DNA from: a virus
IMG/VR virus record: IMGVR_UViG_3300010267_000002
Length of the DNA: 56,778 nt
Strand: one strand, 5' to 3'
In this document: positions 5,608-54,231 of the stretch, in pieces
Layout of the letters: every line of letters starts with the position of its first letter
Position numbering within the stretch: the stretch's first letter is position 1
Notes under the pieces: generated by a model
Seen by the model: only the letters and a program-made list of their open reading frames with translations
What the model was told of the DNA's origin: nothing
The model's database searches: none
Translations under genes and position numbers: made by a program

Positions 5608-6723
5608 ATGAAAAAGATAGAGTTAACTATAGTAAGCGATTATGTCCCGTCATGGGGCATAGCCGATGCTATACGTGAATTATTTCAGAATGCATTAGAT
5701 CAGGAAGCACAATGTAGCGACAACAAGGCGTCATGGGAGTATGACGCCGCAACACAGACGTTAAGTATCAGTAACAAGAAGTCAGTGTTAACTACAAAAT
5801 CACTATTGCTTGGTTCGACAACTAAGTTCGGCGACCCAGCGACGATAGGCCAATTTGGTGAGGGTTACAAAATAGCAACCCTGGTGCTTCTCAGAAATAA
5901 TAAGCCTGTAGTATTCTATAACTACGGGTGCCGTGAAGTGTGGCGGCCAAGGTTTGTCAAGTCACGGCGCTTCGGCGCTGATGTGTTAACGTTCTTTATC
6001 GACACTAAGCACCCATGGTCCAAAGTACCCGACGAGGACCTAACGATAAAGATACATAATATCAGCGAAGATGAGTGGAACAATATAATAGTACCTACAA
6101 ACTTGCACCTCATGACAGACTACACAGTAATAAATGACACTGAGTTTGGTCAGATACTGGACATACCTAGCAAGGTATTTGTTAATGGCTTGTTTGTATG
6201 TGACTATGCAGAGTACACGTACGGTTATAACTTCAAGCCCGGTGTGCTGAGACTCGACCGGGATCGCAAACTGGCCTCAGACTTTGATCTCAAGTGGCTT
6301 GCATCTAAGATGTGGCGTGTGGCGAAGGGTCCAGATGTGTTACTACACGTAACTAAGTTGCTCGAAGCAGGCGCCGCTGACGTACAGTACATAGCAGATA
6401 CCTCCATAGGTTCACTACAGCATATAGCCCGCGAGGCGTACCTTCAGTTCACAGAGACGTATGGCAGCAACGCCGTGCCCGTCAGTAGCCAGTATGAGGC
6501 ATCCAAGGTGCCCTACACCCACAAACCTATTATAGTTAATGAAACCTACAAGCGTGTTATAACGTCATCAACACTATACAGCGCCCCCGAGCCAATGCCA
6601 GAGCCTCCCTCAATATCTGAGAGACTAACAGATTGGCTGCGCAAGTATGGTGATGAGCTATCAGTAGAGGCCTCAGCAGAGCTTGAGGAGCTCATAGAGA
6701 CAATCAGAGAGGAGGGGTATTAA
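5608..6723 (+). CDS. GHKL/Bergerat-fold ATPase-like protein
   Basis: N-box-like AIRELFQNALDQ and a G-box-like GQFGEGYKIA. Confidence 0.6.
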   Translation: MKKIELTIVSDYVPSWGIADAIRELFQNALDQEAQCSDNKASWEYDAATQTLSISNKKSVLTTKSLLLGSTTKFGDPATIGQFGEGYKIATLVLLRNNKPVVFYNYGCREVWRPRFVKSRRFGADVLTFFIDTKHPWSKVPDEDLTIKIHNISEDEWNNIIVPTNLHLMTDYTVINDTEFGQILDIPSKVFVNGLFVCDYAEYTYGYNFKPGVLRLDRDRKLASDFDLKWLASKMWRVAKGPDVLLHVTKLLEAGAADVQYIADTSIGSLQHIAREAYLQFTETYGSNAVPVSSQYEASKVPYTHKPIIVNETYKRVITSSTLYSAPEPMPEPPSISERLTDWLRKYGDELSVEASAELEELIETIREEGY

Positions 6724-6960
6724 AGCCAAATTCTTTAACGTAATTGAGAAAGAAGGACCGTAGAGCGCCGCTGTGGGGATGATAACTGGGAGCCAGTCGA
6801 GTTCATGGAGCTGACAATCGGGGACGTATTCCGCATGTACGAAGATACTGGCGAGCCCGTGATAGATCAGAATGGCCACAACGAATGGATTGCTACTGGT
6901 AAGCCATACATAAACAAAGATGGCATACCTACAATCAAAGCCTACAGTGGCTAAATGAGA

Positions 6961-6989: not shown

Positions 6990-7155
6990 ATGAGCATTTC
7001 TTCAGATACATGATAGCCAAGTCATGATGATATACAGGTAATCGTCCTTTCAGTATTGTCACAATCTCTACATACTTCAGTATGTTGTCTAATGTGGGCT
7101 TAGCTTTCATTTGATGTTTTGCGTCCATATAATCACCAAACGTAATTGTCTTCAT
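6988..7155 (-). CDS. Hypothetical protein
   Basis: ATG at 7155 lies after GGAGG (reverse complement of CCTCC at 7166-7170). Same frame as the track ORF 6988..7185. Confidence 0.5.
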   Translation of the reverse strand: MKTITFGDYMDAKHQMKAKPTLDNILKYVEIVTILKGRLPVYHHDLAIMYLKKCS

Positions 7156-7678
7156 ACTCGTCAAACCTCCTTGCAACAGCCTCAAACTTCTCCCTGTATT
7201 TAGGTTGTATCTTATTATCCGGTCCTAAACACTTAGTCATAAGCTCCTCCAACATATTTTGATATACGTCAGGCTCCTCAGTTAATTCTAATGTCATTAA
7301 CCTATCGTACTCATCCATCAACTCGTCACCAATACCCATCACCTCAGCAAGATATCTGTCAACGGATGTCTTCTTAGCCTCCTTGGTTAGACCCAGCACT
7401 TCAGCAGCGTAACGTCCCTTCGGCGAGAGACCACAGGCATGCAGTGTCTCATACAGAACCTTGGCTTGCTCCAGCAGCGCAACCTGTTTAGGCGTACGCG
7501 CTTTACTGTTATAAGCTACTGTAACAGCTTGATTGAAGTTTTCACATTCCTTACAGACGGTATGGTGACCTACTGTAGTATTGTAGATTCCCTTGCCCCT
7601 TGGTTTGTAAGGTCTATAACTACTAATTGGTAATAGCCTGCCACATTGTACACAGGCTTTAGTCGCATCCAAGTGCAT
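7133..7678 (-). CDS. Zinc-ribbon protein; paralogue of 4327..4893
   Basis: Motifs CVQCGRLLPISSY...CKECE and C-terminal ELTEEPDVYQ...RFDEYEDNY. Confidence 0.7.
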   Translation of the reverse strand: MHLDATKACVQCGRLLPISSYRPYKPRGKGIYNTTVGHHTVCKECENFNQAVTVAYNSKARTPKQVALLEQAKVLYETLHACGLSPKGRYAAEVLGLTKEAKKTSVDRYLAEVMGIGDELMDEYDRLMTLELTEEPDVYQNMLEELMTKCLGPDNKIQPKYREKFEAVARRFDEYEDNYVW

Positions 7679-8243
7679 GTTTTCGCCTCCTTAACTTCGA
7701 GAGTATTAGGTCTGTATTTGGACACCAACCACCACGTTTGTAGTCAGCTATGTAGTCCCGAATGATTTGATGTAATTCTTCGCATTCTTCAATCGTTAAT
7801 ACATTCATTTTGGCACTCAAGCGCTTATAACGCAAATACCTGTCAGAGCAGTGATTACACACCTCATCAGATCCGACTGGCACAGTTGCAGTGACGCCGC
7901 AACGCTTACATGTAATAGTTTTCTTAGCGACTGCCTGCTTAGCAGAGGCTATTGAGCTCAAGTACTGCTCAATTATCTGACGCTGCTGCCAAATATCCGG
8001 CGGCGCCTCAAAACCTTGCTGTGCTTTGTCACACCAGTACAGTATCTTTTGGTAGTACGTATTTATCGACTTTTCTGAACTTCGTATATTAATGCGACCT
8101 TTGCTTACTTTGTAGCTTTGCCAAGCCTTACCACAAGCTTCACATTTGTCACTGTGTAAATAATGCGCTAGAACATTTTCTGCACCGCAACATACACATC
8201 TACTAACTTCGCGTACTACACGTAAGTCATCCGTAAGGAACAT
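7659..8243 (-). CDS. Multi-zinc-ribbon protein; possibly N-terminally longer (see the ATA-start finding)
   Basis: 194-aa ORF with several CxxC pairs: CVCCG, CEACG, CKRCG and CNHC. Confidence 0.7.
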   Translation of the reverse strand: MFLTDDLRVVREVSRCVCCGAENVLAHYLHSDKCEACGKAWQSYKVSKGRINIRSSEKSINTYYQKILYWCDKAQQGFEAPPDIWQQRQIIEQYLSSIASAKQAVAKKTITCKRCGVTATVPVGSDEVCNHCSDRYLRYKRLSAKMNVLTIEECEELHQIIRDYIADYKRGGWCPNTDLILSKLRRRKHALGCD

Positions 8244-8290: not shown

Positions 8291-8312
8291 CACCTCCTGA
8301 TTATATTATACG
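8291..8312 (-). promoter_or_regulatory. Promoter/SD cassette CGTATAATATAAT-AGGAGGTG (minus-strand copy)
   Basis: The reverse complement reads CGCGTATAATATAATCAGGAGGTG. Near-identical cassettes precede terS (13987) and the scaffold gene (18657). Confidence 0.55.
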
Positions 8313-8377
8313 CGTTTTGTTCATTTGTTATAGCTTCAAGTGTAAAAAAAGTTAATCATATGATGTTTGTGTGTTAG

Positions 8378-8604
8378 TGTATAATAATGTATTAACATGT
8401 ATAATTGTGTACGATTTTGTGTATTGTGTATAATTCGTGAGGCCGGCCTTTATATATATGTGTAAAAAATAAAAATAAAATCTGTTATGTTATTATAACA
8501 ATAACAAAAAAGTTTTTAAAAAAATTTGAAAAAACTTAAAAATTAAATTGTACAAATAATACAAAATTATACACAATTTAACACAATTATACACTGATTA
8601 TACA
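8378..8604. promoter_or_regulatory. AT-rich dyad region: 3 x TGTATAAT on the left and 3 x ATTATACA on the right, flanking an A/T-tract centre. Candidate origin or operator region.
   Basis: TGTATAAT at 8378, 8398 and 8427. ATTATACA at 8566, 8586 and 8597. Central AGGCCGGCCT palindrome, plus A-runs and T-runs. Confidence 0.45.
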
Positions 8605-8734
8605 AGTATGTACAGATAATACAAAAAATACATGTTGTTCATGGATTGACTACAATCATATCTATGTGGTAGTGACTATGGTACACTGCGCCGCTGCTTC
8701 TACAATTAAACTATAGTAAAAGGAGGCTTAATCA

Positions 8735-8986
8735 ATATTTAATATTTGGGCCTTTCTTATTATTATATTATATCCTATATATATATACTTTTTTCATATT
8801 TTGATTGGAAAGAAAGAACTTTGTTTGCACTGTAGAACACATGTAATTACAAGGACCTTAGTAGTTATCCAGTCTTCACAAACTCTCAGACCTGACGCCG
8901 CTCTGGATTTGAAGCGGCGTCGGGGCGCTGAGAAGACATCTAGCCAGGCGCTGAGAGGACGCCTAGCACAAGCCAGGTCTTTTTAA
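8735..8986 (+). CDS. Possible small membrane protein with a non-canonical ATA start (very tentative)
   Basis: AGGAGG at 8721-8726, then 8 nt, then an in-frame ATA. The N-terminus IFNIWAFLIIILYPIYIYFFHILIG is transmembrane-like. The stop coincides with a terminator-like hairpin plus T-run at 8961-8987. The track only finds a TTG start at 8801, with no SD. Confidence 0.25.
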   Translation: MFNIWAFLIIILYPIYIYFFHILIGKKELCLHCRTHVITRTLVVIQSSQTLRPDAALDLKRRRGAEKTSSQALRGRLAQARSF

Positions 8987-9400
8987 GGCCAAACAGCTCC
9001 TGTGCCGCGGCGAAGCAACAATGTCACGACTCGCCGCTTCCCCGATCGCCGCTGTGCCGCCGCGCCGCCGCGGAGTCTGAAGCTAGAGGTCAGCCACGAC
9101 CGGACGGAGTGGTATTGTAGCTCCTCTTCGCAGCGGCGCTGCGGCGCCGAAGTACCATGCTGGGAAGGGGTTTTAGCGGCCGCATATCGCCGCCGCACGG
9201 TCGCGGCGGCGATGTGTTGGTTAGATTAGCTGCTAAGGTCCACTGTGGCATGAGTGGCATCGCCCCAGCGCCGCCTGGCCGTGGCTGGGAGAGACACATA
9301 AACGCGGCGACGCCTTGCTCACGCTGGCTGTGACGCGGCGCGTTTCACAGGCTAGTAGGTCATAGCCGGGCCAAGCCAATCTTGGTCGCTGCAGCGGGGT
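8860..9400 (+). other. GC-rich structured island A (non-coding; nested hairpins; motif-family member)
   Basis: Hairpins at 8894-8921 (9 bp), 9126-9152 (nested) and 9185-9212 (11 bp, ATCGCCGCCGC/GCGGCGGCGAT). Core GGGGTTTTAGCGG at 9167. GCTAG(T)AGGTCA boxes at 9082 and 9351. Confidence 0.6.
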
Positions 9401-9401
9401 A

Positions 9402-9428
9402 TAAAAAGCGCCCGCCGGGTGGCGGGCT
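9402..9428 (-). terminator. Rho-independent terminator of the leftward two-gene operon
   Basis: GCCCGCC-GGGT-GGCGGGC, with an A-run on the + strand (a T-run on the minus strand). Confidence 0.7.
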
Positions 9429-9451
9429 TATGAAAGCGAGGATGTGTTTAG

Positions 9452-9628
9452 CTATTCAGATTTGAGTTCGACAATCAGCTTGCTACCTTCTTTGTAGCCG
9501 ATCTGCTTGAGCGTCTGCTTTGGCACATACAGCGTGCCGATGTTTGGGACATCCAGAGGTCCATCAAGGACCTCTTTGAAGCGGATGGTGTTCTTCGTTT
9601 CTTTTTCAAACTCGAAGCTGACTCTCAT
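9452..9628 (-). CDS. Small protein (58 aa) with an AbrB/MazE-like C-terminal half
   Basis: GAGGAGG, then 8 nt, then the ATG. Reads MRVSFEFEKETKNTIRFKEVLDGPLDVPNIGTLYVPKQTLKQIGYKEGSKLIVELKSE*. Below the track cutoff. Confidence 0.6.
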   Translation of the reverse strand: MRVSFEFEKETKNTIRFKEVLDGPLDVPNIGTLYVPKQTLKQIGYKEGSKLIVELKSE

Positions 9629-9631
9629 GCT

Positions 9632-10408
9632 TTACACCTCCTCAGCCTCTTTGTTGCTGATAAGAGCCATTGCCTGTGCAAGCAAGTCTTTGGCATCAGC
9701 TGCTTTCAGGTTGTTGACCTCAACGCCGCTAAGCATCGCTGCTAGCTTCTCTTTGGTTTCATCTACAACTACAGTTCGTGTATCCTTTCGCAGAGCCTTA
9801 AGCTGTTCTTCAGCTGCAAGTAACGCTTGCCATCTTTCGTCCTCTTCGCTGAAGCCTTCTTTTGATTTCATGATGGACTTTTTAGACTGAACGTTTCTGA
9901 TCTCCTTGCGCAGTTTCTCCTGGTCAGCCTGCAGTGCTGCAAGCTCCTCAGCTGAATACTCAACTTTACCAGCGCTGCGGCGATTGCCACCGGCTGTTTT
10001 CTTTTTGCCTGTAACCAACCGAATGAGGTTCTCAGCTATTGCGCCGATCATCATTGTGCGGTAGTTGTCCATTGTCATGACCTTGCTCTTAGCGCGGGAG
10101 CGTTTTGACTGCTGGCTTTTCAGCATACCGTCCAGTGTGGCTTCATCAAGCTCTTTGAGGAACTCAACGTCAGCATCTGCTAAATTGTAAGCCTTTGCAA
10201 TGAGCTCATCCATTGCGCCGTGGTCTGACTTTGATTTTGCGATCAGCTCTTTGTACTCTTCAAAGTTGTCATTGATTGTCTTCAAGATGTCGTTGGCGAT
10301 TGTTGCTGCCAAACTTGTCAGCTGAGCGGTCCCTGCGAGACTTCTTGCGTTGGTAGCCGTCTCCTGGTTTTCCTGTTCGCTGAACAGATTCAACAGTTCT
10401 TTAGACAT
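9632..10408 (-). CDS. Helical protein of unknown function (shares the IRxxQSKK motif with 12946..13461 and 37503..37856)
   Basis: ATG 10408 lies after AAAGGAG. Reads MSKELLNLFSEQ... and contains KLRKEIRNVQSKKSIMKSK. The track start is 10465. Confidence 0.7.
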   Translation of the reverse strand: MSKELLNLFSEQENQETATNARSLAGTAQLTSLAATIANDILKTINDNFEEYKELIAKSKSDHGAMDELIAKAYNLADADVEFLKELDEATLDGMLKSQQSKRSRAKSKVMTMDNYRTMMIGAIAENLIRLVTGKKKTAGGNRRSAGKVEYSAEELAALQADQEKLRKEIRNVQSKKSIMKSKEGFSEEDERWQALLAAEEQLKALRKDTRTVVVDETKEKLAAMLSGVEVNNLKAADAKDLLAQAMALISNKEAEEV

Positions 10409-10504
10409 GGTAATCTCCTTTCGCACTGCACTCCCATGCAGCTGCCACACTGTAGTAGTGGCCAACTTATTTTGTTAAGCAGTAAATGCTCAACTCTTAC
10501 CTAT

Positions 10505-10539
10505 ATTATATCATGCAACTTCGCAGCTGTGTATATGTT
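10505..10539 (-). promoter_or_regulatory. Cassette promoter P1: AACATATACACAGCTGCGA box plus TGATATAAT
   Basis: The reverse complement reads AACATATACACAGCTGCGAAGTTGCATGATATAATATAGG. Confidence 0.6.
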
Positions 10540-10599
10540 TTTGAAAAACGATACAGTAGCTGCATCAAATTTTGAAATCGTGCAATAGCCGCCGTGGTT

Positions 10600-10895
10600 G
10601 TAGCACAGTTAAGTCAGGCTGGGGTTTTAGCGGCCGACCACATCTTCGCCTTGTCGAGGTAGCTGTGGTGGTGGCGCAGCGAAGTCAAGCTGTGGCGGGG
10701 TTTTAGCCGCGGTGGCGCAGCGAAGGCATGCTGTGGCGGGGTTTTAGCGGCCAGAGCCAGCCCTGGCAGGTGGAGGCTCTGCGATGCGGTAATGCGCCGT
10801 CCGGCCGAGGCTGGGTTATTGCTCACGCCCGCTGAGGCGGGCTGCAAGCTAGTAGATCATGGCCAGGCCAGGCTATTCATGAACTGCGCAGCCAA
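10600..10895 (+). other. GC-rich structured island B
   Basis: Three cores (10621, 10697, 10738) within about 2.5 units of a 41-nt repeat. TTGCTCACGC, hairpin GCCCGC/GCGGGC, then AGCTAGTAGATCATGGCCAGGCCAGGCTATTCATGAACTGCGCAGC. Confidence 0.6.
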
Positions 10896-10908
10896 GCTCA
10901 AATTTCCA

Positions 10909-10944
10909 TAACATATTTATTTCCGCGAAGAAATATGATATAAT
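10909..10944 (+). promoter_or_regulatory. Cassette promoter P2 (divergent copy) with TGATATAAT
   Basis: TAACATATTTATTTCCGCGAAGAAATATGATATAATATAAAT. Confidence 0.5.
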
Positions 10945-11012
10945 ATAAATATGGCCGAATATGGCTAAATAAATTATGCAGCTGCGATTCAGCAGCAGAA
11001 AGGTGGGTTATT

Positions 11013-11405
11013 ATGAACCGTTATTTTTGGGACAATGAGAGCTGTGCGGTTCTTACCGAGCAGGAGCTACGCGCGTTTTTCGACAAATTTAGAGAGATTG
11101 ACAGCGACTTCAGCCGTATGTACAGCACGTTTGAGCAATATGTGGAAGCGTGCTGCAGCGAGAGTGGTAGCTTGCAGCTACTGCGCAAGGGTCCAGGTCA
11201 ATTTAATTCCGCCGGCGGTGATGATGTCGGTGCAATATCTCAGTTTTTGGCTTTGCTAGAAGCCATCTGCAGCAGTGAAAAACCTGGCTGTGACGTCAAG
11301 ATAATCGTAGACGGATATATGCTCGAGGCATATGACCATCCAGCGTTGATGCAAGGCTTAATTAATGCGATAAGCGACTACTATGAAGAAGAATTATGCT
11401 GCTAG
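11013..11405 (+). CDS. Hypothetical Cys-rich acidic protein
   Basis: 130-aa ORF. SD AAAGGTGGG. Own promoter and terminator. Confidence 0.65.
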   Translation: MNRYFWDNESCAVLTEQELRAFFDKFREIDSDFSRMYSTFEQYVEACCSESGSLQLLRKGPGQFNSAGGDDVGAISQFLALLEAICSSEKPGCDVKIIVDGYMLEAYDHPALMQGLINAISDYYEEELCC

Positions 11406-11425
11406 CCACTGCGCCGCTAGCCACT

Positions 11426-11455
11426 GCGCAGCAAGCAATTGCTGCGCATTTTTAT
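11426..11455 (+). terminator. Rho-independent terminator
   Basis: GCGCAGCAA-GCAA-TTGCTGCGC followed by ATTTTTAT. Confidence 0.75.
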
Positions 11456-11459
11456 ATAT

Positions 11460-11668
11460 TTGAGCGTGGTACGGCGATGCCAAGTTGTGGCTGGGTTTTA
11501 GCCGCTATTGCATTGCATAGGCGTATCGTAGCCTCGAGGCTATAACTCAGCGTAGCCCAGCCGCGGCAGTATTGCGGTTGCAGTGTTGCTTACGCTGGTT
11601 GTGGCTGCAGAGACTTCCATAGCTAGTAGGTCACAGCCGGGCCAGGCTATTCATGAACTGCGCAGCTG
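11460..11668 (+). other. GC-rich structured island C
   Basis: Core at 11493, then GTTGCTTACGC, a hairpin, and AGCTAGTAGGTCACAGCCGGGCCAGGCTATTCATGAACTGCGCAGC. Confidence 0.6.
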
Positions 11669-11684
11669 TTAAATTTTTCTTATA

Positions 11685-11719
11685 AACATATACACAGCTG
11701 CGAGTCTATATGATATAAT
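11685..11719 (+). promoter_or_regulatory. Cassette promoter P3: AACATATACACAGCTGCGA box plus TGATATAAT
   Basis: AACATATACACAGCTGCGAGTCTATATGATATAATATAAT. Confidence 0.6.
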
Positions 11720-11756
11720 ATAATAGATAGAAATCATATTATTGGAGGGATTGGAT

Positions 11757-12194
11757 GTGAAGTACAAAGTGTTATCGCACACACACGAAATGACTGGAGG
11801 TTACTGCACAGCGAGTATATTCCGCTTGCAAGATGTTACTAATGGTGAGATACTGTATTTAATAATCGACGACTACTGCGGCACGTTAGCTACTGAAGAT
11901 TTTGTTTTGCAAGATGTTGATGACCGCTTTGTAATGATAATTGACACTTTTGAATTTGACACACTGTATGCTAATCACAAATATTTTGATTTGTACAGAT
12001 ACTGCTATAATGAATTTGTCAAAGAGGACTGTAGATATTTCAAATCCACGAAGTGGCTGCCCTACAGATTATTATCTGATAGTCTCCGTGAGCAAATTTC
12101 ACTTGGTTACTATCGCTGGCATAAACAAAATGTTGGTGACTGCTTTGAGACGGATGGTTATAGAATTATTTTTGCAGATGGATACAATAAATAA
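11757..12194 (+). CDS. Hypothetical protein
   Basis: GTG 11757 lies 7 nt after GGAGGG. The track start is 11742. Confidence 0.65.
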   Translation: MKYKVLSHTHEMTGGYCTASIFRLQDVTNGEILYLIIDDYCGTLATEDFVLQDVDDRFVMIIDTFEFDTLYANHKYFDLYRYCYNEFVKEDCRYFKSTKWLPYRLLSDSLREQISLGYYRWHKQNVGDCFETDGYRIIFADGYNK

Positions 12195-12223
12195 CTACGC
12201 AACAAAAATAAATTGAGTTTAAT

Positions 12224-12250
12224 CAGCAGCTAAGCGCTGCTGTATTTTTC
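12224..12250 (+). terminator. Rho-independent terminator
   Basis: CAGCAGC-TAAGC-GCTGCTG followed by TATTTTTC. Confidence 0.75.
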
Positions 12251-12321
12251 TGCAAGTTGTGCGGCGTTGCATTGCCAAGCTGAAGCTGGGTTTAGCGGCC
12301 GGTTATTATCTCGCCTGAGCA

Positions 12322-12687
12322 GGGTTTTAGCCGCGGTGGCGTGGCTTTGCCAAGCTGTGGCTGGGTTTTAGCCGCGGTGGCGTGGCTTTGCCAAGCTGTG
12401 GCTGGGTTTTAGCCGCAGTGGCGTGGCTTTGCCAAGCTGTGGCTGGGTTTAGCCGCGGGGTACAGTCCTGCCAAGCTGTGGCAGGGTTTTAGCCGCGGGG
12501 TACAGTCCTGCCAAGCTGTGGCAGGGTTTTAGCCGCGGTGGCGTGGCTTTGCCAAGCTGTGGCTGGGTTTTAGCCGCAGTGGCGTGGCTTTGCCAAGCTG
12601 TGGCTGGGTTTTAGCCGCGGTGGCGTGGCTTTGCCAAGCTGTGGCTGGGTTTTAGCCACGGTGGCGTGGCTTTGCCAAGCTGTGGCT
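12322..12687 (+). repeat. Tandem array of nine units of about 41 bp (39-41 bp), consensus GGGTTTTAGCCGCGGTGGCGTGGCTTTGCCAAGCTGTGGCT, preceded by a degenerate copy at 12274-12321
   Basis: Units start at 12322, 12363, 12404, 12445, 12484, 12524, 12565, 12606 and 12647. There are four sequence variants. No ORF of 60 aa or more is reported on either strand. Confidence 0.95.
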
Positions 12688-12750
12688 GACTGCAGGCGGC
12701 GGGACTAGTAGGTAGTCACCTTGCAGTCCGGCTGAGGCTGCGCTGTGTTG
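12688..12750 (+). other. Island D 3' module (bulged hairpin carrying an ACTAGTAGGTAGTCA box)
   Basis: GACTGCAGG-CGGCGGGACTAGTAGGTAGTCA-CCTTGCAGTC. Confidence 0.5.
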
Positions 12751-12754
12751 CAAT

Positions 12755-12800
12755 AAAAAAGGACCGCAGCATTTACTGCGGTCCTTTCTGATTATTTTTT
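12755..12800. terminator. Bidirectional rho-independent terminator
   Basis: AAAAAA-GGACCGCAG-CATTTA-CTGCGGTCC-TTTCTGATTATTTTTT, with A-run and T-run on the two sides. Confidence 0.75.
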
Positions 12801-12886
12801 ATCCATTTCTTAAGTTCTTCGAATGTGAATGGCGTGCCAGTTTCCCGGCAGTACTCTTCGAATCTTTTCAGGTCTTTATAGTTCAT
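12773..12886 (-). CDS. Possible 37-aa protein downstream of 12946..13461
   Basis: Reads MNYKDLKRFEEYCRETGTPFTFEELKKWIKNNQKGPQ*. Weak SD AAGGA. The stop lies inside the terminator stem. Confidence 0.35.
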   Translation of the reverse strand: MNYKDLKRFEEYCRETGTPFTFEELKKWIKNNQKGPQ

Positions 12887-12945
12887 CTCAGATTCATCCT
12901 TTCTTTTTTGACTGGCTGGGGCTTTGAAGCCCCAGCCTCGGTCGT

Positions 12946-13461
12946 TTACATCAAGCTTTTCAGAAGCTCGATTATTTTTTCTTGACTTAAGTTTCCTGAA
13001 CTTTCTATTGTGTCGATTATCGTCTGAACATCGGTTTTTCTGACATGCTCATTGTCAACTGGCTTGATTTTTTCACGACGTTCGATCAGCATCTTTTCAA
13101 TCTCGCAAGCTTTTCTGTATTCGTCATTGTCACCCTCTATATCCGTCAGCCATTTTGTGAGAGTCTTTTTTGATTGAATCGATCTGATTGCTTTAATAGT
13201 TTCGTCGTAGTCAAGCTTGTCGACGTCCTCTTGTGTGTATTGTGTGACAGGCTTTTCTTTAGGGTCTAAGAGCTGGCGAGCTTCTTTTAAGACTTGCTCA
13301 TACTTGAGCACTTCGGCCATTTCCTTTTCGTATGAGCTTTTGCCTTTTTGCTTTTTAAGCCGACACTTGACTGACTGAATCCTTTTAAGCTCTCTTTTGA
13401 CCTTTTCTACGTCGTTGTCAAATTTGTTAGCAACTTTCTCGATCTCTTTTAAGTTTGTCAT
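12946..13461 (-). CDS. Helical protein of unknown function (IRSIQSKK motif; paralogue-like to 9632..10408)
   Basis: 171-aa ORF. SD GAGG lies upstream. Charged, coiled-coil-like composition. Confidence 0.7.
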   Translation of the reverse strand: MTNLKEIEKVANKFDNDVEKVKRELKRIQSVKCRLKKQKGKSSYEKEMAEVLKYEQVLKEARQLLDPKEKPVTQYTQEDVDKLDYDETIKAIRSIQSKKTLTKWLTDIEGDNDEYRKACEIEKMLIERREKIKPVDNEHVRKTDVQTIIDTIESSGNLSQEKIIELLKSLM

Positions 13462-13491
13462 TTTAAAATCCTCGCTTTCTCTTGCTATTTT

Positions 13492-13516
13492 TTGACAACC
13501 AATATTCAGTTGTCAA
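13492..13516. promoter_or_regulatory. Palindromic operator-like site TTGACAAC-N9-GTTGTCAA in the leader of the 13461 operon
   Basis: Perfect 8-bp arms. Confidence 0.45.
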
Positions 13517-13595
13517 GGAACAAAGATTGAACAATAGCAATTTTGATCCTTTCCAAGTCAAAATTGATTATATTTATTATTCAATCTTTAATTAT

Positions 13596-13604
13596 ATTAT
13601 ATCA
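13596..13604 (-). promoter_or_regulatory. TGATATAAT extended -10 (leftward)
   Basis: ATTATATCA on the + strand, upstream of the 13461 gene. Confidence 0.5.
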
Positions 13605-13625
13605 AAAATAAATAAATAAAGATGC

Positions 13626-13634
13626 TGATATAAT
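13626..13634 (+). promoter_or_regulatory. TGATATAAT extended -10 (rightward, reads into island E)
   Basis: GCTGATATAATATCC. Back-to-back with the leftward copy. Confidence 0.5.
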
Positions 13635-13654
13635 ATCCAAAAATTATAACATTT

Positions 13655-13850
13655 TTTTGGCTATTATGCACAGGCCTGGCACCGCGGCGCAAGATCCAGT
13701 CAACAATCCGAAACCCCCAAAGAATAAACCAAGCCCAGTAGTATCGCGGCGGCGCATCCACACCGGAAAAATATGGTTAACCCCAAAGAATAGAAGCATT
13801 CTAGCGCCCCAACCCCGGGGCCCCCCATATTTAGGTGGGCCATTAGAATA
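13655..13850 (+). other. GC-rich island E, including a candidate cos region (GCGCCCCAACCCCGGGGCCCCCC at 13804-13826)
   Basis: A G/C tract with a CCCCGGGG palindrome about 190 bp upstream of terS, in a genome with terS-HNH-terL order. GGCTATT and CACAGGC boxes are shared with the other islands. Confidence 0.35.
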
Positions 13851-13986
13851 GTCCTGTAGTTTATAATTGACTTGTTACGCGTCCGTGAGTAAGGCCGAGG
13901 GTATTTATATATTAAAGATACAACGTACGTGTAACGAGTTGGCTTACTTCTAGACATTCTTGTAGCTATATCGGGTGACTGTGTGA

Positions 13987-40166: not shown

Positions 40167-40542
40167 GGTATATACAGACGAAGCCGCCTTACTAAAGGCT
40201 GTAATAAGGTGGCTTGAACCGCAACAACGCAACGGTATAAAAGTTATACGTGTCTGCGACAGATACCATTCTGGATACAGCGACTTATTCATATGTGCAA
40301 GAGGCCGTTTCGTGGTTGCCGAGTTAAAAGATGACACAGGTACAGCGACGCCGCACCAAGAGATATTCATTAAAGAGATGATTGCAGCTGGTGCAGTGGG
40401 AGGAATCTGTAGAACTGTGAAGGACGTTGCAGACCTTATTGAAAAAGCTTTATATTGTCAATGTGGCCACACAGGCTCGCTACTTAAGTACTGTGCATAT
40501 TGCGGTAAAGAAATACAGTACGAAGGAGAAGACTATGGATAA
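40150..40542 (+). CDS. VRR-NUC domain nuclease with a C-terminal zinc ribbon
   Basis: Motif SGYSDLFICARGRFVVAELKDDTGTATPHQEIF. Confidence 0.75.
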   Translation: MRIDSRVYTDEAALLKAVIRWLEPQQRNGIKVIRVCDRYHSGYSDLFICARGRFVVAELKDDTGTATPHQEIFIKEMIAAGAVGGICRTVKDVADLIEKALYCQCGHTGSLLKYCAYCGKEIQYEGEDYG

Positions 40543-41092
40543 GATAATAGAGGACAATGCGGGTTTAATATTCGCGCAACTTAAACGTTTTAATGTTATG
40601 CATGACCCTGAAGCGCAGAGTATAGGCTACGAGGCCTTATGGAACGCCGCTATAACATATGATGAATCCAAGGGCTATAAGTTCTCAACGTACGCTACGT
40701 GCTGCATCTACAACGCGCTTGGCTCATACATACGGACGCTAAACAGAAAGCGCCAGTTAGAAGTTGCATCATATAACAACATAGCTTACCAAGAAGATGG
40801 GACCAAACATGAATATTTAGAGTTGCTTTCAACTAATATTGTAGATACAGAACAAGAGCTATTACAGAAGGAGCTTTATTGCACTCTAAATAGAGCTATA
40901 CAAATATCGTATGATAGATTGACAAACCCAAAGCACAAGGCAGTTATTAAGGTGTGGCGCGATGCTGAATACAATATCTCAAATAAGGAGATAGCTGCAG
41001 CCGTAGGAGTCTCTCAGCCGTATGTCAATCATATTATAAATACATTTAAGAATAGTGTCAAAAAAAGAATGAGGGGGTATTTCAATGAATGA
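40535..41092 (+). CDS. Sigma-70 family sigma factor (regions 2 and 4)
   Basis: Region 2-like EALWNAAITYDESKGYKFSTYATCCIYNALGSYIR. Region 4 HTH-like SNKEIAAAVGVSQPYVNHII. ATG 40535. Confidence 0.75.
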   Translation: MDKIIEDNAGLIFAQLKRFNVMHDPEAQSIGYEALWNAAITYDESKGYKFSTYATCCIYNALGSYIRTLNRKRQLEVASYNNIAYQEDGTKHEYLELLSTNIVDTEQELLQKELYCTLNRAIQISYDRLTNPKHKAVIKVWRDAEYNISNKEIAAAVGVSQPYVNHIINTFKNSVKKRMRGYFNE

Positions 41093-50909: not shown

Positions 50910-51296
50910 ATGCCAGTAAATCCATTAGAGCATATGCTCAAAATGCAGAAAGAATTTCAGGATCGCGTCGACCCGCGCTACAACAGTGGCTTAAAAGAAC
51001 GCGCGGCATTCCTTAGAGACCACTTCGTATTCTGCAATCAGGAACTACATGAGATGCTGTATGAGGTACCATTTTTCAAACACTGGAAGAACTACAGTAA
51101 TATGACAGATGAAGAGATTGCTGAGGCATTTGATAAAGCAAAGAATGAGCTGATTGACGCTTGGCATTTCTTTATGAATTTATCAATAGGTCTAGGTATG
51201 GATGCAGAAGAGTTCTATCAACGTTATTTAGATAAGCATAAAGAAAATATAAGGCGCCAAGATGAAGGGTACGACCACACTATGAAACATATTTAA
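50910..51296 (+). CDS. All-alpha NTP pyrophosphohydrolase (dimeric dUTPase / MazG-like)
   Basis: Pattern QELHEM...KHWK...ELIDAWHFFMN...YLDKHKENIRR. Confidence 0.6.
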   Translation: MPVNPLEHMLKMQKEFQDRVDPRYNSGLKERAAFLRDHFVFCNQELHEMLYEVPFFKHWKNYSNMTDEEIAEAFDKAKNELIDAWHFFMNLSIGLGMDAEEFYQRYLDKHKENIRRQDEGYDHTMKHI

Positions 51297-51307
51297 GGGG
51301 GATAATC

Positions 51308-51586
51308 ATGACTAATAAAGTTGTTAATTTACCAGATGCCTGCACCGTCCGTATGGACAGTGCGCTATACGAGTCAGATGACTTCGTAGCAATATTGTCA
51401 AAGAAAGACGGCGACACGGCAATATTCTATAACACTGACGCGTTAACGCTAGGCATGGCTTTTAAGTTAGTTGCTAAGGAATTTGTTAAGTGCGTGGAGC
51501 AATGCTCGCCATCAGAGCAACAAGAGATAGAAGCTATACTATGTGATGCAAATATAATGGAAAGGTTGCGTGGGGCTGATGAATAG
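51308..51586 (+). CDS. Hypothetical protein
   Basis: 92-aa ORF with SD AAGGGGG. Confidence 0.55.
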   Translation: MTNKVVNLPDACTVRMDSALYESDDFVAILSKKDGDTAIFYNTDALTLGMAFKLVAKEFVKCVEQCSPSEQQEIEAILCDANIMERLRGADE

Positions 51587-52517
51587 AATAGAAGTTAAGA
51601 TACTAAATCCAGACGCAGTAACGGATGCTGAACGCATGATGGTTGCAATGGCTCGCCTAACACAACGCGGACATAACATTAGTAATATGAATGACTTTCT
51701 GGAACTACTGAACAAACCATATTCTGATAAACTTGTAGATTCTATGGTGTCGTTACCCCATCCAACCATCCAGAAGTTTGGCATTATAAATGTTGCTGTA
51801 GTTGGGGCGTCGCGTCGCTTCTTAGCACAAATAACACGGCATCAAAATGAAGTCAAGTTTATGTCTGGCTCATTACAGTATTCTGATTATTCTGGTAAGG
51901 CACAGTTCGTTGTACCTTATGAGATAATTAAATATGATAATGAAAACCCAGGCAAGCATGTTACAGACCTCTACATAGATGGTTGCTTAAGAGACTTATC
52001 TGAATATGAAGACCTTGTAAAATTAGTTGGTAGAGATGCAGCAGGCTATAAGATGCCACAAGGCATGCGTAATGTGCTATTGATTTCGGCCACGCCATAC
52101 CAATTAAAGCATATGATACGTCAACGAACTTGTAACAGGAATACGCTGGAGACCCAGTATGTTATGTTGTTAATATGGGAACAGCTATGGAGGCTAAGTA
52201 GCATGTACCATGACTGTGGACCATTCTGCACTACAGGCAGCTGCCCAGAAGGTAAGATGTGTTGCGGTAAACCATTTGGCGGATTAGCAAATCCTACGGT
52301 GTTACTGGATACGCGATTCAAATATATCAGGGGGAGTAAGTTGGCTATCGATAAAGAATATGGCAAGTACATTGTTACTTGCGACATGTGTGGTGATACC
52401 TTACCGGCTGAAGACACTCACAATGATGCTAGACGCGCAGTTAAGGAAGCTGGTTGGAGCACTAAGATTGTAGCCGGTGAATGGATAAATATCTGTCCCG
52501 CTTGTGAGGAGGTGTGA
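51570..52517 (+). CDS. thyX: ThyX-like flavin-dependent thymidylate synthase homologue with a C-terminal zinc-ribbon domain
   Basis: ITRHQNEVKFMSGSLQYS, where ThyX normally has RHRxxSxxxxSxRY. LKHMIRQRTCNRNTLETQ. Extra C-terminal CDMCG...CPAC domain. Confidence 0.6.
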   Translation: MGLMNRIEVKILNPDAVTDAERMMVAMARLTQRGHNISNMNDFLELLNKPYSDKLVDSMVSLPHPTIQKFGIINVAVVGASRRFLAQITRHQNEVKFMSGSLQYSDYSGKAQFVVPYEIIKYDNENPGKHVTDLYIDGCLRDLSEYEDLVKLVGRDAAGYKMPQGMRNVLLISATPYQLKHMIRQRTCNRNTLETQYVMLLIWEQLWRLSSMYHDCGPFCTTGSCPEGKMCCGKPFGGLANPTVLLDTRFKYIRGSKLAIDKEYGKYIVTCDMCGDTLPAEDTHNDARRAVKEAGWSTKIVAGEWINICPACEEV

Positions 52518-52518
52518 C

Positions 52519-52998
52519 ATGATTATACTTGTTGAAGGTCCTGATGGTGCAGGTAAAACCACAATTATCAAGCAGTTAATGGAAAGTCTTCCAGGAAGTT
52601 TCTATAGACACTTCAGCAATCCTAAGACCGAAGAAGAGGCTGATAATTACTGGAAGGTATATGCAGAAGCTGTAAGTTCAGCAGACCCAACTAAAGTGCA
52701 CATATTTGATAGAAGCTGGTATTCTGATGTTGTGTACGGACCAATCTTTAGAGGTAGACTAGAGATGGATCCAATGCATGTTAAGATGTTAGAAGCTCTA
52801 GTAAAGACGCATGGCGGAGGTTTTGTAATTTACTGCACAGCACCACTCAAGACCTTATGGGCACGCTGTAAGCAACGTGGCGAAACCTTTGTGTTGTCAA
52901 AGGATAAGCTGGATGAGGTGTCCAGATCCTATGCCCACGTAATGGCAACTCAATGCGGCTTACCCGTAATACGATATGACACGGGTGCTACATGGTAG
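52519..52998 (+). CDS. (Deoxy)nucleoside-monophosphate kinase, thymidylate kinase-like
   Basis: P-loop ILVEGPDGAGKTT. ATG 52519 lies after GAGGAGG. Confidence 0.75.
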   Translation: MIILVEGPDGAGKTTIIKQLMESLPGSFYRHFSNPKTEEEADNYWKVYAEAVSSADPTKVHIFDRSWYSDVVYGPIFRGRLEMDPMHVKMLEALVKTHGGGFVIYCTAPLKTLWARCKQRGETFVLSKDKLDEVSRSYAHVMATQCGLPVIRYDTGATW

Positions 52999-53561
52999 AC
53001 CCTAAAATATGTGAGGGGTGTGGCTGGGTATATCCTATAACGCATCCCGATAAGCGGTGCCGCTTCTGCGGCACCCCATTTAAGAAAAGAATATGCAAGC
53101 TATGTGGGCAATTTGCAGAGGTTGCAAAGGGCGAAAATATATGCAAGAAATGTAAGAGCAAAAAGGTTATGGCTAGTACAACACCCGAGCAAGCCTTAGC
53201 AAAGTTACAACGCCATCGCGCTAGAGTACGTAAGAAGAACGAGGATAAATTTAATGCATGGCTTGAAATGATCAGTAAAGTTCGTAAACCAATCAAGACA
53301 CTAACAGAAGATGAATGGATAAGAGCATGCATGCACTTTGGTTCATGTGCGACTTGTGGGTCTAGCTCTATAGATGCAAGAGGCATGTTTATACCATTCA
53401 AGTTCGGCGGAAGGTATGCAGCGTGGAATATTATACCGATATGTGACAAATGCGCCACAGCGCTTAAGTTCCAGCATAACCCATTCATTAGATATAAACC
53501 AGATATTCTAGACCCAATTGTAGAGTATCTACGCCCAATTCTTGAGGAGGCGATCAAATGA
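52992..53561 (+). CDS. Multi-zinc-finger protein
   Basis: Motifs CEGCG, CRFCG, CKLCG, CKKC, CATCG and CDKC. Preferred over the mirror ORF on the minus strand. Confidence 0.6.
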   Translation: MVDPKICEGCGWVYPITHPDKRCRFCGTPFKKRICKLCGQFAEVAKGENICKKCKSKKVMASTTPEQALAKLQRHRARVRKKNEDKFNAWLEMISKVRKPIKTLTEDEWIRACMHFGSCATCGSSSIDARGMFIPFKFGGRYAAWNIIPICDKCATALKFQHNPFIRYKPDILDPIVEYLRPILEEAIK

Positions 53562-53830
53562 AACGTATTCTTAAGTACACTCTAGATATTGTTGACTATC
53601 AGGAATTAACTCTGTCAGATAATAGTAAAATATTATCTGTAGCTAATCAGAGAGATAATATAGTACTGTACGCACTGACAAATGAAGAACCAACTACATG
53701 TACTTACGCAATTATTATACATGGCACAGGGCATCCTGCCGATGACGTGATAGGTGCACAATTTATAGGCACAGTAAGTCTATATAATGGCTCATTGATG
53801 TTCCATGTATTCGCAAGGAGGATAAGTTAA
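53558..53830 (+). CDS. Hypothetical protein
   Basis: 90-aa ORF with a coupled start. Confidence 0.55.
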   Translation: MKRILKYTLDIVDYQELTLSDNSKILSVANQRDNIVLYALTNEEPTTCTYAIIIHGTGHPADDVIGAQFIGTVSLYNGSLMFHVFARRIS

Positions 53831-54231
53831 TGAACATGGCAAGACGTAAAGTATTCAAAGATTTTACAGCTAACTTGGCAACGTTATCTAAATGTACAGA
53901 GCGCAAAGTTGCGGCTATAATAACTGACAGCAGTATGTCACAGGTATATAGTATAGGTGTAAATGGCGGTCCTAAAGGTTTAGCAGATTGCATGTGCGTG
54001 TTGGATGGAAAGTATGGATGTATACACGCTGAAATAAATGCTCTTATAAAGTGCACTAGTACAGAGCCTGGAAAAATTATGTTTGTAACTTTAGCGCCTT
54101 GTAAGCAATGCGCCACAGCGATAATAAATGCACCAGGTGGATTTTCAAAAGTATACTACTTTGAAGATTGGAAAGAAGATTTTGGTATACAATTATTAAA
54201 GGCCTCAGGTATACATGTAGAACGTATATAA
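53830..54231 (+). CDS. dCMP deaminase
   Basis: Zinc motifs CIHAEINAL and PCKQCA. Confidence 0.85.
   Translation: MNMARRKVFKDFTANLATLSKCTERKVAAIITDSSMSQVYSIGVNGGPKGLADCMCVLDGKYGCIHAEINALIKCTSTEPGKIMFVTLAPCKQCATAIINAPGGFSKVYYFEDWKEDFGIQLLKASGIHVERI

Follow-up and report, generated by a model that had tools for sequence, protein, structure and literature searches.

Strand-polar, non-coding repeat islands between early gene cassettes of related phages, and their possible role as recombination joints

In the hyperplastic early regions of T4-type phages, small orphan genes, each with its own promoter and terminator, lie beside conserved non-coding linkers known as PeSLs (PMC2839356, PMC4122927). 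Breakpoints of insertion, deletion and replacement between close relatives are located in these linkers, which are documented as exchange points between unrelated sequences (PMC4122927). A second precedent is the first-step-transfer DNA of T5, where several non-coding repeat and injection stop regions are better conserved than the poorly conserved early ORFs around them (bioRxiv 10.1101/866236). Type III antitoxins are built from short repeats of 31-62 nt in toxI and 40-48 nt in cptI (PMC3401426). Each PeSL is a single compact promoter-plus-terminator motif, and its conservation is explained by those functions. Known DNA-binding arrays include sopC of F, which consists of 12 x 43-bp repeats, and the arrays bound by p6 at either end of the phi29 genome.

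The locus described here belongs to a siphovirus-type phage of ~57 kb from an uncultured lineage (IMG/VR record IMGVR_UViG_3300010267_000002); the window is the whole stretch of DNA analysed, 56,778 nt. A first-pass annotation had described an accessory locus of self-contained cassettes parted by five G+C-rich islands, A to E, and the cassette layout is borne out, as are the promoters and intrinsic terminators that it named. Islands A-D reach 58-71% G+C (100-nt windows) against ~41% genome-wide, whereas island E, at only ~47-53%, does not fit the description. The features are as follows.

8860-9440, plus strand: island A, the long single-copy member, with Y box 9167-9181, Z box 9315-9324 and W box 9352-9360
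9427-9410, minus strand: intrinsic terminator of the leftward p258-p58 operon
9452-9628, minus strand: p58, conserved, 58 aa
9632-10408, minus strand: p258, a conserved, all-helical, basic protein
10533-10505, minus strand: sigma-70 promoter of p258 (TACACA-17-TGnTATAAT)
10549-10567: conserved palindrome adjoining island B, perfect in the related locus L039 as CGATGCAGTAACTGCATCG
10600-10895, plus strand: island B, between divergent promoters, with Y boxes 10624-10634, 10700-10710 and 10741-10751, a 2 x 41-nt repeat, Z box 10819-10828 and W box 10849-10857
10909-11448, plus strand: cassette 1, with promoter TGATATAAT (10909-10944), p130 ORF (11013-11405) and terminator (11425-11448)
11460-11668, plus strand: island C, with one X-Y unit (Y box 11495-11505) followed by a body common to the window and the related locus L258, a Z-like box 11586-11595 and W box 11623-11631
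11691-12242, plus strand: cassette 2, with promoter (11691-11719), p145 ORF (11757-12194) and terminator (12224-12242)
12250-12750, plus strand: island D, with ten Y boxes, W box 12705-12713 and a terminal X box 12731-12740
12758-12787: strong bidirectional terminator ending both island D and the leftward p171 operon
12806-12889 and 12946-13461, minus strand: p27 and p171, conserved leftward genes with a promoter at 13605-13576
13655-13850, plus strand: island E, a 62-66-nt duplication (13683-13726 and 13745-13792) directly upstream of terS

Island A, p58, p258, p171 and terS form a fixed frame, with the variable cassettes inserted between p258 and p171, and terS, HNH and terL follow immediately downstream. 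The cassettes are self-contained units of early type, each with a sigma-70 promoter, a small orphan ORF and a terminator; p130 has no Pfam or PHROG match, and the cassette 1 promoter is a 74% copy of the promoter at 11685-11723. Neither p258 nor p58 yields an informative fold, p258 having no fold match and p58, modeled as a small beta-barrel (pLDDT 96), only weak beta-barrel matches. Island B had been placed after a terminator, but it lies between divergent promoters, beside the palindrome at 10549-10567, which is followed on the minus strand by a T run and so resembles a terminator or an operator. Island E, which had been grouped with the other four, is a separate element outside the A-D family; none of the boxes defined below were found in it, and it is a probable packaging (cos) region.

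Islands A-D are non-coding. The ORFs within them are rich in Arg, Ala and Pro and overlap one another on the two strands, as first noted, and the 41-nt period rules out coding. The islands are composed of four short boxes, all on the plus strand and restricted to the locus.

Y box, plus strand: G(G/C)GTTTTAGCSGC
X box, plus strand: cAAGCTGwGGCTG
Z box, plus strand: TTGCTCACGC
W box, plus strand: CTAGTAGRT

X and Y together form units that recur 1-10 times per island, most commonly with a period of 41 nt and otherwise in spacing classes of 35/36, 40/41 or 45-48 nt; in most islands the units are followed by a tail of Z, a further X, and W. The tandem array in island D has nine 41-nt copies (12322-12688, 92% matches), and island A carries an invariant block, GGTCGCGGCGG, at 9199. 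The sharing of modules among islands is far above chance: GTTTTAGCSGC, at no more than one mismatch, has 18 matches against 1.55 expected, of which 15 are in the locus, all on the plus strand. The locus also holds 18 matches to the X box and four to CTAGTAGRT.

The same architecture recurs in 35 related loci from metagenomic phages of 48-60 kb (18 IMG/VR loci plus metagenome loci), and homologues of island A are present in 18 loci. Strand polarity is kept, with 358 of the 372 cores sharing a strand, spacing again falls into discrete classes, and Y does not vary among 306 unique units, in contrast to its flanks. GTTTTAGCSGC is retained in a relative with only 72-73% p258 identity, and the invariance of the 11-mer, the order of the tail modules and the polarity all persist across lineages in which p258 is ~53% identical. 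The genes p258, p171, TerS and HNH occur in every related locus of sufficient length, and the islands strictly co-occur with p258 and p171. Cassette order and content, on the other hand, vary even among phages whose p258 is 91-98% identical. Passive capture of host DNA would have left the islands unconserved among related phages, which is contrary to what these 35 loci display. Searches of Rfam (CRISPR repeat families included) and of GenBank phages and plasmids returned no match to the islands, supporting the earlier impression that they correspond to no described element. Islands A-D are thus a conserved family of strand-polar, sequence-defined, non-coding intergenic repeats.

The boxes are conserved as sequence and not as structure. 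The islands had been described as packed with nested hairpins, for which there is no support beyond what base composition leads one to expect. Folding z-scores were -1.65 and +0.17, neither significant, and no consistent pairing partner for the core appeared in 164 folds. At the level of units, the hairpin model paired 52.8% of cells against 51.9% expected, with mutual information (MI) of at most 0.1, and cognate and non-cognate arm pairs folded about equally. When pairs predicted for island A from the close clade were followed into divergent sequences, 32% of the changed cells kept them, compared with 31-41% in slid controls. The folded-RNA reading therefore failed on folding z-scores, on unit-level covariation and in the cross-clade test of island A, and nothing points to the islands being folded RNAs.

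In seven relatives, homology to the p130 cassette stops exactly at 11505, the final base of the Y box in island C, although these identical ends may derive from only two or three events; the five of the seven that were inspected show three different continuations. Of 65 right ends of homology, 11 come to within 3 nt of where a Y box ends on its 3' side, where ~1.4 are expected (2.2% of locus positions); these 11 belong to the 26 right ends that lie inside islands, for which 6.6% is expected. BLAST HSP ends are approximate except at the one junction inspected base by base. No left end does so (0/65), and the breakpoints at the Y box are polar.

We tentatively favor the view that islands A-D are polar recombination joints for cassette shuffling, comparable to PeSL linkers and probably recognized by some factor. 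As joints they would permit gain, loss, duplication and reordering of cassettes, with an upstream cassette bringing its own terminator and X-Y unit along. Exchange at a Y box would leave stretches of homology that reach precisely to the final base of Y and give way to different DNA downstream, and unequal exchange between units would let arrays expand and shrink. Exchange might proceed by short-homology recombination through a YqaJ-type exonuclease, such as the phage encodes, or through a nuclease or recombinase that recognizes Y; the invariance of the 11 nt would reflect recognition by a conserved factor acting on DNA and not on folded RNA. Repeats of any kind attract recombination, and for that reason the joints may be incidental to some other primary function. 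Several observations count against joints: homology alone leaves unexplained both the invariance of the 11-mer across such distant p258 lineages and the upkeep of 200-550 bp of GC-rich DNA in a size-limited genome, Pfam yields no recombinase, integrase or ParB-like protein, and, as noted, p258 and p58 lack an informative fold.

Two other functions deserve weighing, each of them unlikely. One is that the islands are arrays of RNA decoys, transcribed from the plus strand by terminator read-through or from unrecognized promoters, whose GGGUUUUAGC-containing units titrate a host factor; candidate targets are a type III toxin (the units acting as pseudo-antitoxin, like the pseudo-ToxI of phage PhiTE), a Cas protein or tracrRNA (an RNA anti-CRISPR), or an RNA-binding protein. 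The units, at 35-48 nt and 1-10 copies, overlap type III antitoxin repeats, and the near-identity of the island D units suggests the recent amplification expected of a dose-dependent decoy. All units lie on one strand, which folds 20-30 kcal/mol better than the minus strand by virtue of G.U pairs, and variation in X is mostly purine for purine or pyrimidine for pyrimidine (R/R or Y/Y) and still permits pairing with Y. In lying among small orphan early genes the islands recall anti-defence loci, genuine CRISPR repeats beginning GTTTTAGCCGC exist, and relatives of p58 occur in Agathobacter rectalis, a species with known cptIN loci. Set against this, the arrays lack any recognizable promoter of their own and either begin ~20 nt past the T run of a terminator or are situated between divergent promoters, and the structural signal was absent in three of three tests. 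There is no Rfam match, there are no unique spacers, toxin gene and A-rich cleavage motif are both absent, and no host array with the unit sequence was found among the matches listed in one genome scan.

It is similarly doubtful that the Y boxes, with X, Z and W, are sites arranged head to tail for binding by a protein of the phage (p258, p171 or p58) or of the host, in a nucleoprotein complex that would silence, insulate or time the early promoters or act like a centromere or iterons, recombination being a side effect. The conservation of sequence and not structure accords with such sites, as do their uniform orientation, their independence of transcription units and the co-occurrence with p258 and p171. 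The KorB operator consensus, TTTAGCSGCTAAA, has a degenerate central S that is common to Y as well. At 11 of 11 nt, Y matches the left half and centre of GTTTTAGCGGCTAAA, the KorB operator of RK2 (PMC5577506), and the identical 11-mer recurs in iteron-like repeats next to an ORF of 339 aa in an unrelated locus, L040. The match to the operator, one of 12 hits in the literature, may be chance, however, only half of the palindrome is present, and within the locus Pfam reveals no partner of ParB/KorB, Rep or HTH type; the fold results for p258 and p58, given above, count against this reading too. Moreover, the spacing classes lie ~5 nt apart, so the sites are not helically phased.

A GC-rich minisatellite that is selfish or neutral, propagates by slippage and gene conversion in the manner of the GC clusters of yeast mitochondrial DNA and serves no phage function would account for the variable copy number, the near-identical units within an array and the restriction to a dispensable region, but it is most improbable given an invariant 11-mer, ordered tail modules and strict polarity across such divergent lineages, and given that other intergenic regions are without the elements. 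We give still less credence to an end-related polar DNA signal acting on the cos-proximal, first-injected genome end, which could comprise Chi-like sites taming RecBCD/AddAB or ejection or packaging-termination signals (compare the T5 first-step-transfer DNA repeats): the locus lies immediately upstream of terS-HNH-terL, the motif is directed at the presumed cos site, the plus strand is GT-rich, AGCGG (the B. subtilis Chi sequence) lies within about half of the Y boxes, T5 repeats share the property of being better conserved than surrounding ORFs and all of the genome's DnaA-box matches (4/4) flank the locus, but the contig was assembled as a circle, with termini overlapping by 123 nt, and does not place the physical ends, the S position disrupts AGCGG in half of the copies, such a signal needs no copies between every pair of cassettes, and DnaA boxes are not enriched overall (4 versus 6.9 expected).

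Type III antitoxin repeats, phage pseudo-ToxI and RNA anti-CRISPRs are likewise phage-borne, short, tandem and non-coding, with similar unit length and variable copy number, but the islands lack the promoter-repeats-terminator-toxin layout, any pseudoknot or structural signal and a known related host repeat. Integron attC sites also separate exchangeable cassettes in direct orientation, with the cassette boundary at a precise point of a conserved short core; here, an IntI-type recombinase was not found, Y (GTTTTAGC) departs from GTTRRRY, a conserved imperfect palindrome is missing, each cassette has its own promoter and the sites stand in tandem arrays. The results on folding, covariation and cross-clade pairing speak against both analogies insofar as they invoke RNA-like structure, whether multi-hairpin sponge RNA or attC-like folded sites. 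Centromere and iteron arrays share tandem direct repeats of ~41-43 bp, and the 11-mer links Y both to O_B of RK2 and to the array in L040, but no ParA/ParB/KorB or Rep gene was detected, the palindrome is a half, and the islands are dispersed between expressed cassettes. The T5 regions resemble the islands in their setting and their conservation, in DnaA-box matches (which flank the locus here) and in that function is unproven in both; T5, however, has mixed direct and inverted repeats with palindromes, paired DnaA boxes and a mapped terminal repeat, whereas the islands are uniformly direct, GC-rich and free of internal DnaA boxes, in a genome whose ends are unmapped. PeSL cassettes differ in that the islands are 200-550 bp of GC-rich, strand-polar X/Y/Z/W repeats of unrelated sequence, which part a terminator from the next promoter and in which the joint is an invariant 11-mer, in a phage of another type. 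Of the four analogies first offered, PeSLs are nonetheless the best fit: in both, conserved non-coding linkers stand beside small orphan genes that carry their own promoters and terminators, cassette content and order vary between close relatives, and the breakpoints of homology lie in the linkers.

Islands A to D of the accessory locus are real and conserved, and as a sequence family they are hitherto undescribed. They are assembled from four types of short box, termed X, Y, Z and W, every copy of which lies on the + strand; the boxes are restricted to the accessory locus, where their counts are far above chance. The first-pass annotation had grouped five G+C-rich islands into one class. A to D do stand out from a genome with an overall G+C content of about 41%, and island E, which has none of the four boxes, is a separate element. 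The islands (with G+C content in 100-nt windows) and the boxes are as follows:

8860-9440: island A, G+C 55-71%
10600-10895: island B, G+C 60-70%
11460-11668: island C, G+C up to 60%
12250-12750: island D, G+C 58-64%
13655-13850: island E, G+C 47-53%
+ strand: Y box, G(G/C)GTTTTAGCSGC, its core written as GTTTTAGC
+ strand, directly 5' of Y: X box, cAAGCTGwGGCTG
+ strand: Z box, TTGCTCACGC
+ strand: W box, CTAGTAGRT

An island opens some 20 nt past the T run of the upstream terminator, runs through 1-10 X-Y units, usually closes with a tail ordered Z-X-W-X, and is limited on its 3' side by the next promoter or a terminator. In island D the units form a tandem array of 9 copies of 41 nt with 92% matches. 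Promoters and terminators lie largely at the positions first assigned to them; island B, which was said to follow a terminator, instead sits between divergent promoters. The ORFs within the islands are overlapping Arg/Ala/Pro-rich artefacts, as had been supposed, and coding potential is ruled out by the 41-nt period and the stop codons. Nor are the units sigma-70 promoters: they contain a -35-like hexamer, TTGCCA, yet no -10 lies at a workable distance, and the tail spacing of 16-27 nt (both judged by eye) is incompatible with a promoter.

The intergenic regions hold several smaller features. Between the divergent promoters at island B lies a palindrome (10549-10567) with equivalents in the compared loci L034, L037, L039, L044 and L046; that of L039 is a perfect 19-mer, CGATGCAGTAACTGCATCG, and the conserved palindrome is preceded by TTGAAAAA. 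Its role may be that of an operator, or of a minus-strand terminator shielding the promoter of p258, a leftward gene of the locus. The cassette promoters (10915-10944 and 11695-11719, together with those of L029, L034, L169 and L174) have CYGCG in the spacer (TCCGCG or CTGCG), upstream of an extended -10 (TGnTATAAT), a common motif that suggests co-regulation of all cassettes. A 27-aa micro-ORF (12806-12889, minus strand) between the leftward gene p171 and a bidirectional terminator is probably a genuine small gene, since at least 9 related loci share it with 70-92% identity.

Island E, which lies directly ahead of terS, is a 62-66-nt duplication. It probably belongs to the packaging region, given the HNH endonuclease located between terS and terL; that terS-HNH-terL arrangement would place a cos site near it.

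The window is a complete phage genome in circular assembly, with an exact 123-nt terminal overlap (1-123 / 56656-56778), and its coordinates are thus uninformative about the physical genome ends. The structural module is of siphovirus type and includes a 1282-aa ORF of tape-measure size. The other recognizable genes include:

endolysin, amidase-SH3
SNF2 helicase
DNA ligase
RNase H
primase-MCM helicase
YqaJ exonuclease
40427-41092: phage-encoded sigma-70-like factor, region 2 plus C-terminal HTH
50910-54231: nucleotide-metabolism cluster of dUTPase, ThyX, a deoxynucleoside/dNMP kinase-like protein and dCMP deaminase

This last cluster could be a sign of altered thymidine metabolism or of DNA modification. 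Pfam scans, which covered the locus proteins, most larger ORFs and part of the small ORFs, found no integrase, ParA/ParB, reverse transcriptase or Cas gene, and no tRNA or tmRNA was found. GenBank phages gave no match in near and distant searches or in a p258 protein search, and the phage has no close cultured relative; among cultured phages no TerL exceeds 44% identity, and plasmid searches were likewise negative. More distant homologues of the small locus protein p58 are present in Agathobacter rectalis, which hints at Clostridia as hosts. Another distant homologue lies in a 169-kb scaffold (L280, ENA ERZ28614521) in a different phage-like context (RVT_1 reverse transcriptase, YopX, DUF6273), so p58 is a widespread small phage protein rather than one specific to this locus.

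Pattern scans of IMG/VR and metagenomes, together with look-ups of p258 homologues, brought to light 35 loci that share the architecture, the long contigs among them being mostly 48-60 kb. These loci keep one fixed order: island A, p58 and p258 (leftward), island B, then the variable cassettes and their islands, p171 (leftward), terS, HNH and terL. Across the family 358 of 372 Y cores lie on one strand, and the spacing of units is discrete, most often 40/41 nt, with further classes at 35/36 and 45-48 nt. Even in L174, whose p258 is 72-73% identical, GTTTTAGCSGC is retained while GCG replaces GGG. One scanned locus, L045, proved to be a collagen-like coding repeat unrelated to the islands. In a genome-contig scan with a loose pattern, the matches listed included Ala-rich coding repeats, unrelated CRISPR arrays and the like, and no host; a stricter pattern such as CAAGCTGNGGCTGGGTTTTAGCSGC would suit a prophage search.

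What lies between the constant genes is variable. Cassette content and order vary among phages whose p258 is 91-98% identical, p130 and p145 being the proteins of cassettes 1 and 2 in the window:

window and L258: p130, then p145
L227, L187 and L238: p145-like gene (35-37% identical), then p130
L207 and L226: p130 alone
L174: four cassettes

In seven relatives the p130 cassette, taken from its promoter through ORF and terminator to X and Y, stops being homologous at 11505, the last base of Y, and base-by-base inspection of L227, L187, L207, L226 and L242 revealed three different continuations past that point. Over all loci, right ends of long homology blocks fall within 3 nt of a Y 3' end in 11 of 65 cases, against 2.2% of locus positions; within islands the figure is 11 of 26, against 6.6% expected. 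Left ends never do so (0/65). The joint is thus both polar and precise. Few independent events, perhaps five, lie behind these Y-box breakpoints.

The best-supported reading, which we hold tentatively, is that islands A-D are recombination joints delimiting exchangeable cassettes, much as do the PeSLs, the promoter/stem-loop linkers between early genes of T4-type phages. PeSL linkers are points of sequence exchange (PMC4122927). In the present locus, array length would change through unequal exchange, and cassettes would be swapped either by short-homology recombination that relies on the YqaJ-type exonuclease of the phage or by Y-targeted cleavage or strand exchange. That Y stays invariant in lineages with p258 only ~53% identical argues for a conserved factor that reads it. 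There are leads, both from sequence comparison, that point to recognition of Y as double-stranded DNA. One is that Y agrees over 11 of 11 nt with the half-site and centre of the KorB operator, the sole relevant hit among 12 papers from a literature motif search and one that may be chance. The other comes from L040, an unrelated viral contig of 33% G+C that carries about 7 copies of ATAGGTAGGTTTTA(G/A)CGGC, mostly 32 nt apart (minus orientation, ~6650-6900), just downstream of a 339-aa ORF without a Pfam match; this array looks like an iteron-type origin using the Y-box 11-mer.

A bolder possibility, which we consider unlikely, is that Y is the target of dedicated machinery, either a cassette-acquiring nuclease or recombinase (candidates being p258, p171 and zinc-ribbon/HNH-like proteins) or, with Y as decoy, a host defence factor. 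The structure models of p258 and p58 tell little. The p258 model has no PDB fold match. That of p58 is a small beta-barrel with only weak Mop/EF-P/OB-like matches, and an AbrB-like assignment is wrong. Adjoining the locus are two leftward genes, p181 and p194 (7133-8243, minus strand), with multiple CxxC zinc-ribbon motifs and weak PHROG matches to endonuclease VII/HNH, and their products are candidate nucleases for the joints. The nuclease or recombinase version, if true, would mean integron-like or homing-like cassette acquisition in a virulent-type phage, and the decoy version that the arrays titrate a host defence factor, as RNA or DNA. Under either version this abundant phage lineage, so far uncultured, would carry a programmable platform for anti-defence cassettes whose joints are of a new kind.

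Doubtful to a similar degree is the idea that the islands are RNA decoy arrays, whether type III antitoxin mimics, RNA anti-CRISPRs or protein sponges. Unit length, amplification and the anti-defence-like setting fit; the arrays come without a promoter, a known host counterpart or a structural signal. On this last point the first-pass view of the islands as structured RNA is unsupported. A check it had named, Rfam at gathering score over the entire window, gave no match, and permissive searches returned only terminator-like and other sub-threshold chance matches, none within the bodies of islands A-D. Folding z-scores are -1.65 (+ strand) and +0.16 (- strand) for island C and +0.17 and -0.26 for island B, and the 20-30 kcal/mol greater stability of the + strand follows from G+T-richness alone. 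No consistent pairing partner for Y emerges from 164 folded cores, where its TTTTA is mostly unpaired. In 306 unique units a stem around the GGGTTTT loop is paired in 52.8% of cells, where the columns would predict 51.9% (MI at most 0.1), cognate arms fold only marginally better than, or equal to, arms of other loci, and X-to-Y pairing via G.U (75% of positions compatible) is not separable from transition bias. With neither covariation nor a preference for cognate partners, the hairpin around Y, the inter-unit hairpin and X:Y pairing were all rejected. For island A, 0 of 500 shuffles reached the compensatory-pair score of the RNAalifold consensus, a circular result, since the pairs were picked from the same alignment. 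When a structure was derived from the 12 close sequences without the covariance term, six divergent sequences kept it in only 32% of their changed cells, within the 31-41% of slid controls, and the RNAalifold structure was rejected. It follows that the conserved entities are the primary-sequence boxes.

Conservation at the sequence level, along with co-occurrence with p258 and p171, would also suit architectural or regulatory DNA-binding arrays, which we likewise think improbable and for which there is no identified binder. A purely selfish minisatellite is very unlikely, its behaviour being hard to reconcile with an invariant core, an ordered tail and strict polarity. End-related signals, Chi-like or T5-like, seem a long shot and hinge on genome ends that are unmapped here. 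Passive capture of host DNA is excluded by conservation of the islands in related phages.

The flanks of the locus have features of their own. Left of island A, 8300-8860 is non-coding and very AT-rich (10-25% G+C), with about 8 copies of a 10-nt periodic repeat, AAATTATACA, at 8545-8625 and several promoter-like sites on the minus strand. The whole genome has four DnaA-box matches, three in this region (8425, 8459 and 8567) and one at the start of island E (13664), so that all four bracket the accessory locus.

Fast turnover of phage accessory and anti-defence regions is well known, while the physical joints have been described for very few groups, such as the PeSLs. Islands A-D offer a searchable signature, a polar invariant 11-mer within 41-nt arrays, with which the variable cassettes could be collected for candidates of early or anti-defence genes. 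The lineage is abundant: the flanking p258 has more than 1,600 unannotated metagenome homologues. They also make it testable whether phage cassette exchange is purely short-homology recombination or is targeted.

How, then, do the islands compare with known systems? CRISPR arrays have unique spacers between repeats, whereas the 41-nt units have none. The units (35-48 nt, 1-10 copies) fall within the 31-62 nt repeat length of type III antitoxins (ToxI/CptI/TenpI), but the promoter-repeats-terminator-toxin order is broken by the missing upstream promoter, and downstream ORFs have no ToxN-like Pfam match. ParB/KorB sites are 13-16 bp palindromes; here conservation covers TTTAGC-S-GC and no more, the right half differs from TAAA, and Pfam searches of the locus proteins and most larger ORFs found no cognate ParB, KorB, ParA or Rep homologue. 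Integron attC sites are imperfect palindromes with a GTTRRRY core, from which Y (GTTTTAGC) differs, its arms lacking covariation; they serve promoterless cassettes beside an IntI tyrosine recombinase, whereas each cassette here has its own promoter and the same Pfam searches found no such enzyme. The T5-type FST repeats are similar in that the boxes stay invariant while neighbouring cassettes are replaced, yet those repeats carry paired DnaA boxes, which islands A-D lack (the four matches flank the locus), and they lie in mapped first-injected terminal DNA, whereas this locus comes from a circular assembly with a presumed cos position. The nearest likeness is to the PeSLs: variable orphan genes are flanked, and the indel and replacement breakpoints of close relatives fall inside the islands. 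A PeSL is a compact promoter plus terminator stem-loop, whereas here terminator and promoter lie 200-550 bp apart with an island between them, and no sequence relation to PeSLs was seen. Among the intergenic shuffling linkers of phage accessory regions, islands A-D form a new and unusually elaborate variant, and the locus represents a second type of joint, unrelated to the PeSL and far more elaborate.
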